A program made the translations under genes and the position numbers. The notes beneath the pieces were generated by a model that saw only the letters and a program-made list of their open reading frames with translations, did not search any database and was not told the DNA's origin. A stretch of DNA of 64,000 nucleotides from NCBI GenBank assembly GCA_963737905.1, contig CAVTUQ010000025.1:256001-320000 (forward strand), read 5' to 3'. This DNA is from an uncultured delta proteobacterium. Lineage in GTDB: Bacteria; Desulfobacterota; Binatia; UBA9968. Positions 5,556 to 21,084 of the stretch are shown piece after piece (positions within the stretch are counted from its first letter, which is position 1; the number at the start of each line of letters is the position of its first letter).

Positions 5556-6761
5556 TCAACGCTGACTTTTTAGGGTAAGCAGATGATCAAGAATTTGCTC
5601 AGCGAGGTCATCTTTGCTCATGAGCGGCAATGAACGGACGGCACCGGCACGATCAAGAATCGTCGCGAGATTGGTATCAACGTCGAAGCCGGCTCCTTCT
5701 TCGCTGACGTTATTGGCGACGATCATGTCGAGGTTTTTCTCTCTAAGCTTTTTTTCAGCATTGGCTACCAGCTCTTCTGTCTCGGCGGCAAATCCCACCA
5801 ACATCTTTCCGTTCTTCCTAGCGCCGATCTCCTTGAGAATGTCAGGATTGGGTTCGAGACGAAGTTCGATCGGACCTTCACCCCGTTTCATCTTCTTGTT
5901 AACGAAACCAACCGGACGATAATCCGTGACGGCTGCTGCCATGATCACAGCCGTACACTGGGGAAACTCCTCCAGAACGGCATGCCGCATCTCGGCAGCC
6001 GTCGTCACCGCTATAAGACGAACCCCCGTAGGAGTCTGAAGCTCGGTCGGACCGCTGACGAGAAGTACCTCCGCTCCTCTTCGAAGTCCCGCGCGCGCGA
6101 GCGCATATCCCATTTTTCCGGACGACCGATTCGATAGATAGCGTACTGGATCCAACGGTTCCCGATTTGGACCCGCGGTAATCAATAGCTTCTCGCCAAC
6201 CAAATCCTTCTTTTTGAGCAAGCGGCGGATTTCATCCACGACCTTCTCTGGTTCCGGTAAGCGCCCTTTGCCCTCATAGCCGCATGCGAGATAGCCTTCG
6301 GCAGGTTCCATGAAATGGTAGCCGAGCCGCCGCAACTTCCGGATATTTTCCTGGAGGATCGGATTTGCGTACATGTGAATATTCATGGCAGGTGCGACTA
6401 AAACCGGCGCCTGGGTCGCCATAAGCACAGTTGTCAAGAGGTCGTCAGCAATACCGGCAGCGATCTTGCCGATCACATTCGCGGTTGCAGGCGCAATGAC
6501 AAAAAGATCGGCCCCATCCGCCAGATTGATGTGACCGATTTCAGATTCCTGGGTTAGATTGAATGTTTCAGTGCCAACCGGCATGCCGGAAAGGGTTTGA
6601 AAAGTCAGCGGCGTCACGAACTCCATCGCGCCCCTTGTCATGATGACCTGAACGATGAAACCCTCTTTAACCAGCAATCGGACGAGCTCGACGGCCTTAT
6701 AACACGCAATCCCGCCGGTCACGCCAAGCACCAACGCGGGTTTTTCTTGGTTAACGACCAC
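5556..6761 (-). CDS. coaBC: Bifunctional phosphopantothenoylcysteine decarboxylase/ligase
   Basis: GVTGGIACYK, APATAN, PAMNIHM, LACGYEGKGRL, DPVRYLSNRSSGKMG, VGFAAET. Confidence 0.97.
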   Translation of the reverse strand: MVVNQEKPALVLGVTGGIACYKAVELVRLLVKEGFIVQVIMTRGAMEFVTPLTFQTLSGMPVGTETFNLTQESEIGHINLADGADLFVIAPATANVIGKIAAGIADDLLTTVLMATQAPVLVAPAMNIHMYANPILQENIRKLRRLGYHFMEPAEGYLACGYEGKGRLPEPEKVVDEIRRLLKKKDLVGEKLLITAGPNREPLDPVRYLSNRSSGKMGYALARAGLRRGAEVLLVSGPTELQTPTGVRLIAVTTAAEMRHAVLEEFPQCTAVIMAAAVTDYRPVGFVNKKMKRGEGPIELRLEPNPDILKEIGARKNGKMLVGFAAETEELVANAEKKLREKNLDMIVANNVSEEGAGFDVDTNLATILDRAGAVRSLPLMSKDDLAEQILDHLLTLKSQR

Positions 6762-6966
6762 GGCCTAAAATAGCCAATTGGTCGGGTGCTTGCAAACCTT
6801 TATCACCTCGGGACACTGTCGTAGCCAAGGACCCAGGGCGACGTTAAGTGACTTCATTGGCACTTTTTGTCATTTCTCGCGGATAATGAACAGGGTTGGC
6901 CCGGCACTAGATCCAAGAAGTTCCTTAGAGTGCTAACATGCCTTTATCGTGGTTATTTTCAACTCT

Positions 6967-6982
6967 TGGCATGATTTTGGCT
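6967..6982 (+). promoter_or_regulatory. Possible sigma-54 (-24/-12) promoter upstream of the mlaA-like gene
   Basis: TGGCATGATTTTGGCT has GG-N10-GC spacing about 100 bp before the ATG. The -12 element is imperfect. Confidence 0.3.
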
Positions 6983-7082
6983 GCGTTAGGATATCGCTCA
7001 AAAACACTAATTTCCGCGCCCGATTCACGCGTTATTGACACTTGACCAAGATTCCAAGTTCATGTAAGCCTAGGAGACGAAA

Positions 7083-7922
7083 ATGAAAATTGGCTATAGG
7101 TTTCGATTATTGTGCGCCAGGCTGCTTGTACTGTTCACGATCGGGTTGGGGCTAACGTTATTTACGATGACTGTGGCCCATTCCCAGGAGGAGACAGATA
7201 GGACTGTCGGGAGCAAGGATGTCGCGGGTACGGTAGTCGCTCAGGCACCCGTTGATAAACAGGCGGCCCAAACGGATACCACGTCAATGGCCGAAGGCTC
7301 GGCAGCGGGAGGTGATTTTGAATTCGACCCTTGGGAACCGTTCAACGAGAAAATGTTTTGGTTCAACCGCGAGGTTCTGGACCGCTTTGTGCTCAAACCC
7401 GTGGCAACGGCGTGGGACTTTGTTCTTCCTACCCCGGTTCAGAAGGGAGTTCACAACGTATTTGATAATCTTGCAGTGGTGCGGCGGGTGGTAAACAATG
7501 CTCTGCAATTGAAATTTGCCGGCGCGGCAAAGGAGGCCGCTCGATTCACGATCAATAGCACGATTGGAGTTGTGGGGTTTTTTGACGTGGCAAAAGAAGG
7601 ATTCGGTATAGAGCAAAGCGACCAGGATATGGGGCTGACGTTTGGTGTTTGGGGAATCGGTCCAGGGCCCTTTTTAGTCCTGCCGTTTCTACCGCCTTTG
7701 ACAGTGCGCGACGGGATTGGATACGCGGTGGACGTAGCGATGACCCCGTATATCTATTTCATCCCATGGTATGCCAGTATAGGGAGCACAGCCACTAACA
7801 TGGTCAACGAGCGCTCGCTGAATCTCGACCGTTTTGAGCGCGTCGCGGAGTCAACGGTGGACCTCTACGGCGCGGTTCGTAATGCTTACCTCCAGAGACG
7901 AGCAGCACAGATCCGGCGTTAA
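7083..7922 (+). CDS. mlaA: MlaA/VacJ-family lipid asymmetry protein
   Basis: DPWEPFNEKMFWFN, RFTINSTIG, DMGLTFGVWG, GPFLVLPFLPP, DLYGAVRNAYLQRR. Confidence 0.9.
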   Translation: MKIGYRFRLLCARLLVLFTIGLGLTLFTMTVAHSQEETDRTVGSKDVAGTVVAQAPVDKQAAQTDTTSMAEGSAAGGDFEFDPWEPFNEKMFWFNREVLDRFVLKPVATAWDFVLPTPVQKGVHNVFDNLAVVRRVVNNALQLKFAGAAKEAARFTINSTIGVVGFFDVAKEGFGIEQSDQDMGLTFGVWGIGPGPFLVLPFLPPLTVRDGIGYAVDVAMTPYIYFIPWYASIGSTATNMVNERSLNLDRFERVAESTVDLYGAVRNAYLQRRAAQIRR

Positions 7923-8136
7923 ATCAATCGGTTAAAGAACACCTTACCTCTCATTCTTCGGCTGGTTATCGAAAGCCAGCGAATTTTCCTCAGGCCTGTA
8001 AGGAGTCGCTGTTTCGACTATTGACAACAACCCGGCTGTTCATTAAGAAAATAAGGCCCATTGGGCGGCCGCGCGGGGTTCGAATGGGGCCTTCTTCGGG
8101 CTTCGACAAATCTCTCAAGAGTGGAATTGAAAAAAC

Positions 8137-8496
8137 ATGCCAAGAACAAAAAAGAAGAGCGTAGGACGACCTGCGAAGAACCGATCTGATAACTATTTCG
8201 ACGACGCCGGCCACGACGAAGCGGAAGACGAAGATCTACCAAGCGACGAAGCGGGCAGACGCAAGATTAAGAAGAACTACGAAGAGCTGTTGGGCATTCG
8301 CATCGAGAAACTCCGGGGTCGGATCCTCAACCGCGAGAAAATCAACAAGAGCATCGATGGAGTTTATTTCATCTGCTTCGAATGCAAAAAAATCTGCCAC
8401 AATCTCGACGAAGGCTGGGTCGAGGAAGCAGAAACCCAAAATAGCTTTTGCGGAACCTGCGCCAAAGTCAAAGGCATCCGCAGCAGCGCCGCTTAG
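8137..8496 (+). CDS. Hypothetical C4 zinc-finger protein (weakly DksA/TraR-like)
   Basis: Basic N-terminus with GRP, acidic tract, helical segment, CxxC-x21-CxxC. Upstream TTGACA-N17-TAAGAA. Confidence 0.6.
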   Translation: MPRTKKKSVGRPAKNRSDNYFDDAGHDEAEDEDLPSDEAGRRKIKKNYEELLGIRIEKLRGRILNREKINKSIDGVYFICFECKKICHNLDEGWVEEAETQNSFCGTCAKVKGIRSSAA

Positions 8497-17169: not shown

Positions 17170-17880
17170 TCAATCCGCCAACCGAAACCGAATCATATAA
17201 TACAGCGCCGCCATACCGTCCTTCCAAGTGATCTTCTTGCCTTCCTCGTAGGTGCGGCCGTGATAGGAAATCGGCACTTCGTAAAAGCGGCAGCCTCTTT
17301 TCGCCAATTTCACGGTGATCTCCGGCTCGAAGCCGAAGCGTTTTGACTTAAGATCGATGCCTTTTAAAACTTCAGCGCGGAAGACTTTGTAGCCCACTTC
17401 CATGTCAGAGAGGTTGAGATTGGTGAGCATATTGGAGAGCAGGGTCAGCATTCGATTGCCCATCGAGTGCCAAAAAAAATGGACACGGTGGGCTCCGCCG
17501 CCGGCAAAACGCGTCCCGTAAACGACATCCGCCTGTCCCGCCTGGATCGGCGCGAGCAAGCTCGGATAATCCTTTGGGTCGTATTCCAAGTCGGCATCCT
17601 GAACGATCACGATATCTCCGGTGACATGGCTGAGCGCGGTCTTGAGCGCCGCTCCCTTACCCTGATTCACCGGCTGAAAAAAAACTCTGATCTGATTCAG
17701 CGGATCCTGAGCGCGAGCTTTTTCTTCCTGTAATCGAGTAAGAATTGTCCGGCTTTGGTCCCCGGAGCCGTCGTCGACCAGAATTATTTCCTTGGGAATC
17801 TGGAAGTCGCACACGCGGCGCACGACCTCCTCCAGGGTGCGCTCCTCGTTGAAAACCGGGACCAGAACCGAGAGCTTCAC
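17170..17880 (-). CDS. Glycosyltransferase family 2 (DPM-synthase-like)
   Basis: VPVFNEE, VDDGS, NQGKGAAL, QDADLEYDP, GRTYEEGKKI. Confidence 0.92.
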   Translation of the reverse strand: MKLSVLVPVFNEERTLEEVVRRVCDFQIPKEIILVDDGSGDQSRTILTRLQEEKARAQDPLNQIRVFFQPVNQGKGAALKTALSHVTGDIVIVQDADLEYDPKDYPSLLAPIQAGQADVVYGTRFAGGGAHRVHFFWHSMGNRMLTLLSNMLTNLNLSDMEVGYKVFRAEVLKGIDLKSKRFGFEPEITVKLAKRGCRFYEVPISYHGRTYEEGKKITWKDGMAALYYMIRFRLAD

Positions 17881-18665
17881 TGCTCGAATTCGCGTTTCTT
17901 GAGTTCGCGTATGAAGGCGGAGAGTTTGGGGTCGGCGTTGACGGCTTCGTTGATCTTCGCCTGGAAATCAGCTGCCGCTCTCTCCAGCGGACTGGTATCG
18001 ACTCGGAGGCTCAGCCACTGTGTGAGCCGGAGCAACAGCGCCAACGTTCCTCTCGGATTAGGTGAAACCGCAAGATAGTGGGGCAGGGACGCCCACAAAC
18101 TGGCGTGGGGAACTGCAGCTTTGCGGGAAGCGTCCGCCAGCACGCCGATAATGCCCGTAGGTCCTTGATACCTGGAAGGCATTAAATCTAATTGTTCCAT
18201 CAATTTCGAATCCGTCGAGAAACCTGTCAAAGGCACAGGGCGCGTGTAGAGCACCTCGTCAAGGTAGGCACCCAATGTGACGATCATCTCGACGTGACAT
18301 TCACTGACGAATCGGAGCATTGTTTCAGTGAAAGTTCGCCAGCGCAGCTGCGGCTCGGCGCCGATACCAAGGACAAAATCCTTTTCGACGCCCATCCCCG
18401 AACCGTAATAAAAATCATAGGAGGGCCAGTGGATTTCGCGGAGCTTGCTTTCCGTCAATCGGACGACGGGCCGTTGCACGGAAAAGTCATAGAAATCTTC
18501 CGGGTCGATGCTGGCAAATTTCTTGGCCAGCAGCTGATCCACCAGATAGCGGACCGCCGTGGTGGCGGATGCGCCGGCATCGCTCCAGCCGGAAAAGGCG
18601 AGGAGCAGCACCGGGCTTCGGAGCGATGGACGGCTTTCAAAGGTAAGCGGCTCGCTGGTTACCAT
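17877..18665 (-). CDS. PAC2-family (proteasome assembly chaperone-like) protein
   Basis: FSGWSDAG, EDFYDF..RP, EPQLRW, YQGPTGIIG, WASLPHY...PNP. Confidence 0.85.
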   Translation of the reverse strand: MVTSEPLTFESRPSLRSPVLLLAFSGWSDAGASATTAVRYLVDQLLAKKFASIDPEDFYDFSVQRPVVRLTESKLREIHWPSYDFYYGSGMGVEKDFVLGIGAEPQLRWRTFTETMLRFVSECHVEMIVTLGAYLDEVLYTRPVPLTGFSTDSKLMEQLDLMPSRYQGPTGIIGVLADASRKAAVPHASLWASLPHYLAVSPNPRGTLALLLRLTQWLSLRVDTSPLERAAADFQAKINEAVNADPKLSAFIRELKKREFEQ

Positions 18666-18798
18666 GCAACCAATCTATCACAACTTCACCCGCTCGCTCC
18701 AGCGCTTTTATCAGAGCGACCCGAGGTGTCGGGGCAGAGGGTTACGTTGCGCCTTGTATAACTTCCGGGGCCGGTTTGCTATATTTGACTCTGCCTTT

Positions 18799-21084
18799 AT
18801 GGTTCAAGCACGCGAACATCGGACTCCTATTTTTCAGCAAAACGAGGTCTTGTTCGGCCGTGACAGCACGCCTGGCATAATCGCGTTCGAAATCGAAGGG
18901 GTGGACAAGGTCAGGCTCTTCCGCCGTCAAGACGGCAAGACCGAATCCGATATCGTTCCCTTCCGTCCTTTCATGCTTTTGGCAGGCGATAGTGCTTTGA
19001 AAGACTGGAAGGGAGAGGTGGCGCTCCAAAAGCTGGACGGCAAAGGAGCCTTTGACCATATCGCCCTATTTCCCGACTTGAATCAATTGGAGCAGGCGAA
19101 ATTTCACCTACAGAAAAAAACCGGCAGAGCCTCTTCCGCCTCCGACCTTCCGTATTGGCATTTCAGTGATCCGCTCCAGCAATTTCTGTTGCTCTCCGGA
19201 AAGACGCACTTTTTGGGCATGGCATTCCGAGATCTAAATCGGCTGCAGCTGGGCATCAAAACCTATTGCCAGACGGGATTTGAGTTTCCCAATTCAGCCC
19301 GCCAGTCGGACCGTATCACGGCCATCGCCCTCTCGGATTCAACCGGTTGGGAGCGGTTGATTTCCGGCAAAGAATTCGACGAAGCCGAGATGATTCGAGA
19401 GCTGGTGAAGGAGATCCAGCGGCGCGATCCGGATATCATCGAAGGGCACAACCTTTTTCGTTTCGATCTGGAATACATCGAAGCACGCGCCAAGAGGCAT
19501 AAAGTCGAACTAAAATTCGGTCGGAACGGTTCTCCTGTGAGGAGCCACGCATCTCGCATGCAGGTCGCGGAGCGGACGATCACTTATCGTAAATACGAAA
19601 TCTTTGGCCGGCACGTCATTGATACCTGGATCCTTGCCCAGCACTACGACGTCGCGACTCGTGAGCTGGAGAATGTCGGTTTAAACGAAATTGCCCGCCA
19701 TTTCGGCATCGCCAGCAACCATCGGACCACCATCCCGGCGGAGAAGGCTGGTTGGTATTTCGACCACGACCCCGATATCTTGTTTCGCGATGCCCTTGAC
19801 GACGTCCGCGAAACCCGCGCCCTTTCCGAGCTTCTTTCAACCAGCCACTTCGTTCAAGCGCAGATCTTTCCTTACAGCTTTCAGAATATTCCCCTGCGCG
19901 GGAACGCGACGAAAATCGATGCGCTTTTCCTCCGCGAGTATCTCCACCAAGGCCGTTCGGTACCCCGTCCCGACGAAGGCCGCGAAGTTATCGGCGGCTA
20001 TACGCATATGCAGTACCAAGGAACGGCACGGCGCGTTCTCCACTGCGATGTCACATCGCTGTATCCCTCCATTATGCTGGTCTATGACTACCTGCCGCAG
20101 AAAGATGAGCTGGGCATATTTGCCGGCCTGTTGCGCGATCTGCGCAGGTTTCGGCTCAAAGCCAAAGAACTGGCGCGCGACCTACAGGACGAGGAAAGCA
20201 AGCTCTATTTCAACGCCCTACAATCGACTTTCAAAATCCTGATTAACTCCTTCTACGGCTACCTCGGTTTCCAGATGGGCCATTTCAACGATTTCGAAGC
20301 CGCCAATCAGGTGACGGCCAAGGGTCGAGAGTTGATCCAATCCGCGGTCGCCTGGCTCACGGAAAAGGGGGCGCAGATTATAGAAGTCGATACCGACGGG
20401 ATTTACTTCATCCCGCCGCTAACCGTTAGCACCGCTGCCGAAGAAGAAAAACTCATCGCAAGTCTAAAGGAGACCCTACCTCAAGGCATTGAGTTGGAGC
20501 TGGACGGGCGCTACCCGGCGATGTTTAGCTATAAGATCAAGAATTACGCTCTGTTGGACGAGAAAGGGCGGCTCCTTATCAAAGGTTCGGGCTTGCGCTC
20601 GCGCGGCTTGGAATTGTTTCAGCGCGATTGGCTGGAAGAGATGCTGACTTTGCTTCTCAACGGGGAAAGAGAAAAAGTTCCGGAGCTCTATCAGCGCTAT
20701 CTCGACGATCTCACAAGCCATCGTAGGGACATTGCCTGGCTGGCGAAAACCGAAGCGCTGCAAGATTCCTTGGAAAGCTATCAGACAAAGGTGAAAACAA
20801 AAAAACGGAACGCCGCGGCACCTTACGAACTGGCCTTAAAATCACAGCGGCGGTATCAGCCGGGGGATCAAATTTCCTACTACGTGACCGGAGCCAAAGC
20901 GAAGGTCAAGATCAGCGAAAACTGCAAGCTCACGAGCCAGTGGAATCCGCAGGATCCGGATGAAAACATCGAACATTACAGAGGCAAGTTGAAAGAGCTG
21001 TACGAAAAGTTCAAGCCGTGGATCGAATTTGAGAATTGTCCCAGGCCAAAGGGCGAACTAGACAACGAACCGCTATTACTGTAG
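18799..21084 (+). CDS. polB: Family-B DNA polymerase (Pol II-like) with a degenerate 3'-5' exonuclease
   Basis: Polymerase motifs DVTSLYPSIM, KILINSFYGYLG, EVDTDG and KNYAL are intact. ExoII (HNLFRFD) is intact; ExoI reads GIK and ExoIII reads DALDD. Confidence 0.92.
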   Translation: MVQAREHRTPIFQQNEVLFGRDSTPGIIAFEIEGVDKVRLFRRQDGKTESDIVPFRPFMLLAGDSALKDWKGEVALQKLDGKGAFDHIALFPDLNQLEQAKFHLQKKTGRASSASDLPYWHFSDPLQQFLLLSGKTHFLGMAFRDLNRLQLGIKTYCQTGFEFPNSARQSDRITAIALSDSTGWERLISGKEFDEAEMIRELVKEIQRRDPDIIEGHNLFRFDLEYIEARAKRHKVELKFGRNGSPVRSHASRMQVAERTITYRKYEIFGRHVIDTWILAQHYDVATRELENVGLNEIARHFGIASNHRTTIPAEKAGWYFDHDPDILFRDALDDVRETRALSELLSTSHFVQAQIFPYSFQNIPLRGNATKIDALFLREYLHQGRSVPRPDEGREVIGGYTHMQYQGTARRVLHCDVTSLYPSIMLVYDYLPQKDELGIFAGLLRDLRRFRLKAKELARDLQDEESKLYFNALQSTFKILINSFYGYLGFQMGHFNDFEAANQVTAKGRELIQSAVAWLTEKGAQIIEVDTDGIYFIPPLTVSTAAEEEKLIASLKETLPQGIELELDGRYPAMFSYKIKNYALLDEKGRLLIKGSGLRSRGLELFQRDWLEEMLTLLLNGEREKVPELYQRYLDDLTSHRRDIAWLAKTEALQDSLESYQTKVKTKKRNAAAPYELALKSQRRYQPGDQISYYVTGAKAKVKISENCKLTSQWNPQDPDENIEHYRGKLKELYEKFKPWIEFENCPRPKGELDNEPLLL

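Follow-up and report, generated by a model that had tools for sequence, protein, structure and literature searches.

Bacterial family-B DNA polymerases (PolBs) have been sorted into three main groups: G1, represented by Escherichia coli DNA polymerase II (Pol II); G2, which derives from archaeal PolB2 and has an inactivated exonuclease; and G3, which is EpsilonN-like and uncharacterized (PMC7544198, PMC12926913). According to the more recent of these studies, G3 is the second-largest bacterial PolB group, without an experimentally characterized member, and the published picture, drawn from a survey of complete genomes only, is that of a high-fidelity proofreading enzyme with conserved exonuclease and polymerase active sites (Venclovas-lab 2026, PMC12926913). 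In this work, we analyzed polB, a gene for a 761-residue PolB within a 64,000-nucleotide (nt) stretch of DNA (the window) from an uncultured soil bacterium of the Binatia (assembly GCA_963737905.1, contig CAVTUQ010000025.1, positions 256,001 to 320,000 of the forward strand). An initial annotation, made from the letters of the window alone, had described this gene as a polymerase with an intact core and apparently dead proofreading sites. We observed that (i) catalytic residues of the exonuclease are lost recurrently and throughout the clade to which polB belongs, (ii) the polymerase site is invariant, (iii) the gene is under purifying selection, and (iv) its orthology with genes that keep the exonuclease site is backed by synteny.

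Exonuclease and polymerase sites of the polB product

Membership of the polB product in family B is supported by Pfam, both PF03104 (E = 9e-15, 55.1 bits, cut-off 23) and PF00136 (E = 3e-24, 86 bits, cut-off 23) scoring above their curated cut-offs, and the residues of the polymerase active site are kept (D417, Y422, K479, N483, Y486, D531 and D533; Table 1). At the exonuclease motifs, the codons GGC ATC AAA (19252-19260) encode G152-I153-K154, with GGC one base off GAC and AAA one base off GAA, and the codon GAT (19789-19791), one base off TAT, encodes D331 in F-R-D-A-L-D-D; these are the readings on which the initial annotation had relied. Its further statement that ExoII and all polymerase motifs are intact and that the gene has no frameshift also holds, the frame being open over 761 codons from the ATG at 18799 to the stop at 21082-21084. 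By alignment, G152 and K154 stand in for the ExoI carboxylates and D331 for the ExoIII tyrosine, and N218, D223 and D335 remain.

The assignment of these columns is supported by several comparisons. A 125-member family profile (alignment A2) aligned over its full length with PolBs of Thermococcales (E = 3e-98), and paired the family 'lqlDIETy' with 'AFDIETL' of Pyrococcus furiosus (Pfu) at ExoI, 'GHnlfrfDlpyL' with 'TYNGDSFDFPYL' at ExoII (G-H-n-l-f-r-f-D opposite T-Y-N-G-D-S-F-D) and 'ryalDDvret' with 'KYSMEDAKAT' at ExoIII; the Pfu counterparts are residues that we take to be D141/E143, N210/D215 and Y311/D315. A search of solved structures with the single sequence, which aligned from residue 194 onward only, likewise paired D331 with the Tyr in K-Y-S-M-E-D-A of Pfu. 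Among close orthologues whose exonuclease site is intact, all 67 read D, E, N, D, Y and D at the six exonuclease columns. In addition, an AlphaFold model built on the 125-row alignment A2 reached a predicted local distance difference test score (pLDDT) of 94.8 and a predicted template modeling (TM) score of 0.91, and superposed over the whole chain on the 9N and KOD polymerases with a TM score of 0.79; an earlier 21-row alignment (A1) gave a pLDDT of 52 only. Profile, orthologues and model thus agree with the initial annotation in where ExoI lies.

Table 1 Positions of polB, its motifs and adjoining features in the window.
Feature	Positions	Strand	Remarks
polB, 761-aa G3-group family-B DNA polymerase	18799-21084	+	Open frame, Pfam domains, confident model; stop codon included
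ExoI, degenerate: L-Q-L-G152-I-K154-T-Y (family consensus L-Q-L-D-I-E-T-Y)	19243-19266	+	Both metal-binding carboxylates replaced
ExoII, intact: G-H-N218-L-F-R-F-D223-L-E-Y (residues 216-226)	19444-19476	+	
ExoIII, partly degenerate: F-R-D331-A-L-D-D335-V-R-E	19783-19812	+	Tyr to Asp; D335 kept; aligned to Pfu K-Y-S-M-E-D-A
Motif A, intact: H-C-D417-V-T-S-L-Y422-P-S	20041-20070	+	D and Y invariant in 41/41 clade members and 67/67 intact orthologues
Motif B, intact: K479-I-L-I-N483-S-F-Y486-G	20233-20259	+	
Motif C, intact: E529-V-D531-T-D533-G-I-Y	20383-20406	+	Glu marks the EpsilonN/B10/G3 groups
C-terminal tail E-P-L-L-L	21067-21081	+	Disordered in model; candidate beta-clamp-binding peptide
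Candidate extended -10 promoter element TTTGC-TATATT	18775-18785	+	Conserved block, ends 13 nt 5' of the ATG; very short or no leader
PAC2-family (proteasome-assembly-chaperone-like) gene	17877-18665	-	Divergent, upstream of polB

The possibility that the unusual codons reflect a sequencing or assembly error, or that ExoI and ExoIII had been set in the wrong columns, is effectively refuted. Logan contigs from four public metagenome runs, belonging to four studies, agree on the interval 19150-19900 in that no alternative letter occurs at 19252-19260 or at 19789-19791; one contig of 4,685 nt covers the whole interval and bears five differences, none of them in the three codons, and the contigs of the remaining runs cover either the ExoI or the ExoIII site. 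The initial annotation had proposed a verification in raw reads; this one rests on contigs rather than raw reads, and one of the runs may be the source sample. Besides, close relatives from independent assemblies bear substitutions of their own in the same exonuclease columns, and the profile-to-PDB alignment sets the motifs on the exonuclease residues of Pfu.

As to the group, the Motif C glutamate that is given as a synapomorphy of PolEpsilonN, B10 and G3 (PMC7544198) is present as E529 in I-E-V-D-T-D-G, where Pfu reads Y-I-D-T-D-G. The best phage matches were to Salinibacter phages (36.6% identity, 96% coverage, 4e-136) and to Nostoc/Anabaena phages; Salinibacter and Nostoc phages are the only non-bacterial carriers of G3 that Kazlauskas et al. 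(2020, PMC7544198) name. The NCBIfam equivalogs of Pol II scored below their cut-offs (NF004421, 105.8 bits vs 570; NF004422, 70.9 vs 1103), and in the profile search against the PDB the E-value for E. coli Pol II was 6e-45, vs 3e-98 for archaeal PolB. G2 and B2 are described as wholly lacking ExoIII and as having one Asp in Motif C (PMC7544198), whereas this protein has the ExoIII helix F-R-D-A-L-D-D-V-R-E-T and both Motif C aspartates, so that its loss is separate from that of G2/B2 and much more recent. Taken together, the Motif C Glu, the phage matches and the misfit to G2 and Pol II place the polB product in G3, the link to named G3 members being drawn indirectly, through those phages. 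The canonical G3 architecture of N-terminal, exonuclease and polymerase domains is found here too, the family is, like G3, bacterial and scattered over phyla, and syntenic orthologues of polB with 70-76% identity show all G3 features. The departure from the published description of G3 lies in the exonuclease site, which is lost in the whole clade and in this protein through G152, K154 and D331; since the orthologues at 70-76% identity keep that site within the same gene order, polB appears to be a derived member of G3 and not an outsider. Our literature searches on bacterial B-family polymerases and on Binatia found no paper on G3 members with a dead exonuclease, although the supplements of PMC7544198 and PMC12926913 may list such members.

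Distribution of the exonuclease loss

Homologues of the polB product are plentiful: at least 7,857 of 8,000 scored candidates matched at E ≤ 0.001, the top 120 being 71-92% identical and about 760 residues long, and an exhaustive search of the representatives of 50%-identity clusters returned 5,781 matches, 721 of them below 1e-30. We aligned 233 homologues of 650-860 residues and read six exonuclease and seven polymerase positions in each. The seven polymerase catalytic or motif residues are invariant in all 121 close relatives, 69 of which have all four exonuclease carboxylates (D, E, D, D) and 52 of which do not. In a FastTree tree of 125 rows, polB falls in a 41-row clade with a support of 100 (hereafter the exo-dead clade) in which the intact D-E-N-D-Y-D set is found in 0 of 41 rows; at least one carboxylate is lost in 40 of them and one row differs only by Tyr to Asp. 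A short IQ-TREE search, run on 77 rows after masking of the six catalytic columns, also placed the 28 sampled clade members on one side of a branch (support of 100 in the Shimodaira-Hasegawa-like approximate likelihood-ratio test, SH-aLRT), and on that tree the exonuclease state changes a minimum of 9 times, 6 of these changes being forced by well-supported branches. At least eight further losses lie outside the 41-member clade. The initial annotation had left open whether the altered motifs are strain-specific or define a clade; what defines a clade is the altered state of the exonuclease site, and this state is found again in other lineages.

Within the clade, the sub-lineages differ in what they have lost. 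Read over the six positions, they show GK-ND-DD, AE-ND-DD, NE-ND-DD, KQ-ND-DD, DK-HH-YD, SE-ND-HK, DE-NG-ND and HE-ND-HA; position 152 is occupied by D in 14 members, N in 8, A in 7, K in 4, H in 3, S in 2, G in 2 and R in 1, and position 331 by D in 18, H in 7, Y in 5, A in 4, N in 3, C in 3 and K in 1. As an addition to the initial annotation, ExoII, which is intact here, is by alignment altered in sister sub-lineages as well. That the substitutions differ between sub-lineages, with no shared knock-out, suggests that the exonuclease ceased to be required no later than the base of the clade, where selection on its catalysis would have relaxed, and that different lineages then lost different catalytic residues.

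Proofreading might still be retained if D223, D335 and the new D331 rebuilt a metal site, or if a separate exonuclease acted in trans, as separate DnaQ-type proteins are known to do for C-family polymerases (PMC12926913). Three acidic residues do remain near the site, and purifying selection continues to act on the exonuclease domain, whose ratio of nonsynonymous to synonymous substitution rates (dN/dS) is 0.146. Yet the six positions take up to eight residues in the clade, Gly, Ala, Lys and Arg among them, and no pattern of compensation is apparent; such variation would be expected of a site that plays no part in catalysis. Moreover, exonuclease-deficient (exo-minus) B-family enzymes are routinely made by substituting the Asp and Glu of ExoI. 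Work on exonuclease-deficient E. coli Pol II is among the references of PMC12926913. On balance, and on evidence that concerns the site itself and not a partner acting in trans, we consider retained proofreading very unlikely.

In a wider sample, 40 species-representative genomes of the order, a count that leaves out one unpublished genome, split or partial matches and a family denoted f3 (see below), the exonuclease positions were intact in 27 and changed in 13, and the polymerase residues intact in 40/40. Among 112 distant representatives of 50%-identity clusters (28-61% identity), both sites were intact in 62, the exonuclease D-E-D-D was changed with the polymerase aspartates intact in 40, the reverse was found in 6 and both were changed in 4, the placement of the columns being less certain for those at 30-45% identity. 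The genomic relatives are labelled as metagenome-assembled genomes (MAGs) of Candidatus Binatia, Deltaproteobacteria, Thermodesulfobacteriota, Methylomirabilota, Scalindua, Nitrospirota and Nitrospinota; the exo-dead clade consists of soil and groundwater bacteria, labelled as Binatia, Deltaproteobacteria or Thermodesulfobacteriota MAGs. At four loci (L124, L040, L071 and L072) the longest open piece of polB (521-666 codons) was shorter than the matched range, which suggests frameshifts, either real or due to errors of long-read assembly; these loci were left out of the codon analyses.

Selection on polB and its genomic setting

The exonuclease catalytic columns, invariant in the 67 intact orthologues, are among the most variable in the exo-dead clade: out of 761 columns ranked by variability over its 41 members, D152 came 7th, Y331 17th and D223 54th. 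In neither set do the polymerase columns vary. When the six catalytic columns were omitted, the exonuclease domain still contributed 16 of the top 25 columns for relaxation among those otherwise conserved, on a background of 112 of 358 (Fisher p = 5e-4); K296 and Y311 were the top two besides the catalytic ones. We also computed dN/dS by the Nei-Gojobori method on codon alignments of loci from genomes and metagenome contigs, restricted to pairs whose dS lay between 0.15 and 1.0. In the exo-dead clade (80 pairs), dN/dS was 0.161 for the N-terminal domain, 0.146 for the exonuclease domain and 0.098 for the polymerase domain, with a dN_exo/dN_pol of 1.29; the corresponding values for the intact orthologues (94 pairs) were 0.137, 0.071, 0.078 and 0.83. 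The per-domain comparison that the initial annotation had proposed hence shows purifying selection across the whole gene, with an exonuclease domain that is relaxed about two-fold and far from neutral. A domain that has lost about half of its constraint and yet is strongly conserved is what would be expected if it were kept for structure.

The gene is also maintained in other respects. Its reading frame is intact in 17/17 loci of the exo-dead clade that were examined, and a TTTGnTATAnT block, the best conserved in an alignment of 21 upstream regions, occurs alike in front of exo-dead and exo-intact genes; its sequence points to a promoter of the extended -10 type, whose leader would be very short. 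Dead and intact loci have in common a gene order consisting of an epimerase, a GT2 glycosyltransferase and PAC2 and then, divergently, PolB, an SDR protein, a TPR protein and an aminotransferase. Of 165 other PolB loci, many of which are truncated by the end of a contig, 87 had a PAC2 homologue and 95 an SDR homologue. The shared flanking genes argue for orthologues in a vertically inherited neighborhood, with no mobile acquisition.

Several points weigh against the reading of polB as a maintained polymerase without proofreading. Of the 87 sampled genomes of the window's family (f1; the tally includes one unpublished genome, G080), 44 yielded no match to the gene, some of these 44 being 96-100% complete, and its role would thus be dispensable. 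ExoII N218 and D223 and ExoIII D335 persist in this protein, so that some residual or altered metal binding is possible, and one clade member (P0013) and the locus L090 differ from the intact set by Tyr to Asp alone (D-E-N-D-D-D) and might keep weak activity. The pairs behind the dN_exo/dN_pol values of 1.29 and 0.83 are not independent, for which reason no p-value is attached, and a relaxation of about two-fold would fit a structural role of the exonuclease domain and would also fit some unknown retained function. The trees stem from FastTree and from a short IQ-TREE search without bootstraps. In addition, the metatranscriptome runs X17 and X18 contain only small shares (0.10 and 0.08) of the sampled words. 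Finally, the replicative DnaE1 is unassembled in this genome at 87% completeness, and a second PolB could likewise be unassembled.

The absence of the gene from about half of these genomes also bears on the alternative that polB is no longer needed and that the exonuclease changes are the first visible damage on the way to its loss. This early pseudogenization would account as well for a copy with several internal stops in another genome and for the slightly higher polymerase dN/dS of the dead clade (0.098 vs 0.078). On the other hand, dN/dS stays at 0.10-0.15 in all three domains, far from 1; the polymerase residues are invariant in 41/41 members at the same time as the exonuclease columns rank among the most variable; frames and promoter element are conserved; and the clade is deep, reaching down to about 76% identity, which implies that the exo-dead state has long persisted. 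We therefore regard pseudogenization as very unlikely. The copy with internal stops (G113:C43:186851-189087) is 43-72% identical to the query, was matched piecewise and contains several TGA/TAA stops, and could represent a genuine pseudogene or result from faulty assembly. Within f1, the G3 PolB has been lost about as often as it has been kept; G013, G016, G019, G025 and G065 are examples of genomes without it. Altogether, the invariance of the polymerase residues in 121/121 relatives, the low dN/dS, the intact frames and the conserved promoter favor, as the initial annotation had proposed, a naturally proofreading-deficient enzyme over general decay, and we hold it likely that the polB product is active as a polymerase, dead as an exonuclease and maintained.

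Regarding the ends of the gene, a start at GTG 18559 is disfavored, as that frame would overlap the divergent upstream gene and the N-termini of most homologues, together with the promoter block, fit the ATG at 18799. No inverted repeats resembling an SOS-box operator were found in a scan of positions 18600-18830 of the window. The intergenic region between PAC2 and polB (18666-18798) contains another conserved block, A-A-T-C-T-A-T-C-A-C-A-A-C-T-T, adjoining the PAC2 start, and the PAC2 gene is retained in place beside polB even in the loci of family f3, which are 47-50% identical. At the other end, model residues 756-761 have a pLDDT below 50. The terminal Leu of the tail is present in 38 of the 41 exo-dead clade members and falls in a gap in 57 of the 67 intact orthologues, which end in Q-F-S-L-F or Q-F-S-L-L or, in many cases, have no tail; the disordered E-P-L-L-L of the exo-dead clade may be a tether to the sliding clamp. 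Other substitutions fixed in this clade are D243N, G249S, E353Q, F401Y and P685R.

Proposed role and comparison with known polymerases

The assembly (6.7 Mb in 46 contigs) contains a single PolB: no second, exonuclease-proficient polB, for which the initial annotation had suggested looking, was found in this 87%-complete genome. PolA is present, as are three Y-family matches. The sole C-family match (PF07733; G000:C29:23861-26638, that is, locus L212 5861-8638, minus strand) is DnaE2, which matches the NCBIfam error-prone model NF004225 with 1229 bits vs a cut-off of 939, from profile position 152. Its identification as the replicative DnaE1 was ruled out by the NCBIfam result and because it scores like the second, weaker match of the genomes of the order; DnaE1 is found in 119/121 genomes of the order and is missing from this assembly. 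We also dropped the idea that the loss of proofreading compensates for a missing DnaE2, as the second, DnaE2-like match is common across the order whatever the state of its PolB.

A two-metal exonuclease cannot work without both ExoI carboxylates. Lacking these, and with them probably the exonuclease activity, the enzyme should be less accurate and a better extender of mismatched or damaged primer ends; the mutator or lesion-bypass behaviour to which the initial annotation had pointed may apply here. It would make DNA without editing its own errors, extending mismatched or lesion-paired ends that a proofreader would chew back, and would retain its exonuclease domain as a structural part. This enzyme, the only family-B polymerase found in the genome, is probably one of naturally low fidelity that acts in repair, and might work alongside the DnaE2 and Y-family polymerases of the same genome in an accessory capacity, for translesion synthesis, extension or gap filling. 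A specific role as a translesion or extender polymerase is suggested by analogy and, in our estimation, is a fair guess that falls somewhat short of likely.

A mirror image of the exo-dead form was encountered in f3, a family of the same order in which the orthologue occurs in 28/28 sampled genomes at 45-50% identity. It is single-copy in 5/5 genomes checked, four of which have the exo-intact, polymerase-degenerate form, and adjoins the same PAC2 gene. The seven f3 loci examined (L073, L074, L076, L077, L079, L080 and L081, with the match at about 6001-8196 in each) have intact exonuclease motifs (D-L-E, N-x4-D and Y-A-L-D-D), together with V-D-A-G-G at Motif C, K-V-L-L-D-S-F-H-D-Y-L at Motif B and loss of KxY. 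Their dN_exo/dN_pol ranges from 0.37 to 0.70, compared with the 1.29 of the exo-dead clade, and the dN/dS of their polymerase domain is roughly 0.3. We rejected the idea that this form is a co-resident paralogue, as there is one copy per genome in 5/5 and none in the window's genome. Judging from these motifs, the f3 protein may use a polymerase scaffold for exonuclease activity alone. It is tempting to go further and suppose, tentatively and with more doubt than we attach to the extender role, that a single G3 PolB orthologue, found at one chromosomal locus, exists within one order in four states: bifunctional (ancestral), polymerase-only (the exo-dead clade and at least eight other losses), exonuclease-only (f3) and absent (about half of f1). 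If so, and provided that each derived form is functional, G3 PolB would use its two activities for separable tasks in the cell, the polymerase-only form as an error-prone extender and the exonuclease-only form as a stand-alone nuclease for DNA-end editing or repair, and the group would constitute a natural experiment on the purpose of bacterial G3 polymerases.

With respect to the published picture of G3, these results add uncultured soil and groundwater lineages in which the proofreading site has been discarded repeatedly and the polymerase kept under selection, and a sister family in which the opposite has occurred. Contrasts among close orthologues of the exo-intact, exo-dead and polymerase-dead kinds are testable and could reveal the cellular role of G3 polymerases, and the short list of natural exo-minus B-family enzymes gains a recently derived member. 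Nothing fundamental is overturned, since B-family polymerases with dead proofreading are already known in Pol alpha, Pol zeta and PolB2/G2.

Among known systems, the closest solved structures are those of the Thermococcales PolBs (Pfu, KOD, 9N and Tgo), which are alike in their whole-chain fold and gave the best sequence match among structures solved so far; however, they are only about 20% identical and are replicative-type polymerases of archaea whose exonuclease is active. E. coli Pol II resembles the polB product as an accessory, non-essential bacterial B-family enzyme, but belongs to a different group, and its engineered exo-minus version is the laboratory mutant of which this gene is the natural counterpart. 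In Pol alpha and Pol zeta, both of family B, the exonuclease fold is kept and its catalytic residues are lost, and Pol zeta is a lesion extender. The exonuclease domain of Pol zeta is likewise listed as inactivated in PMC7544198. These eukaryotic cases are ancient, fixed and multi-subunit, whereas the loss described here is recent, recurrent and visible beside intact orthologues. The best functional analogy is archaeal PolB2, a B-family polymerase without proofreading, whose Sulfolobus representative Dpo2 is described as an extender of mismatches and lesions in translesion synthesis (PMC8764526).

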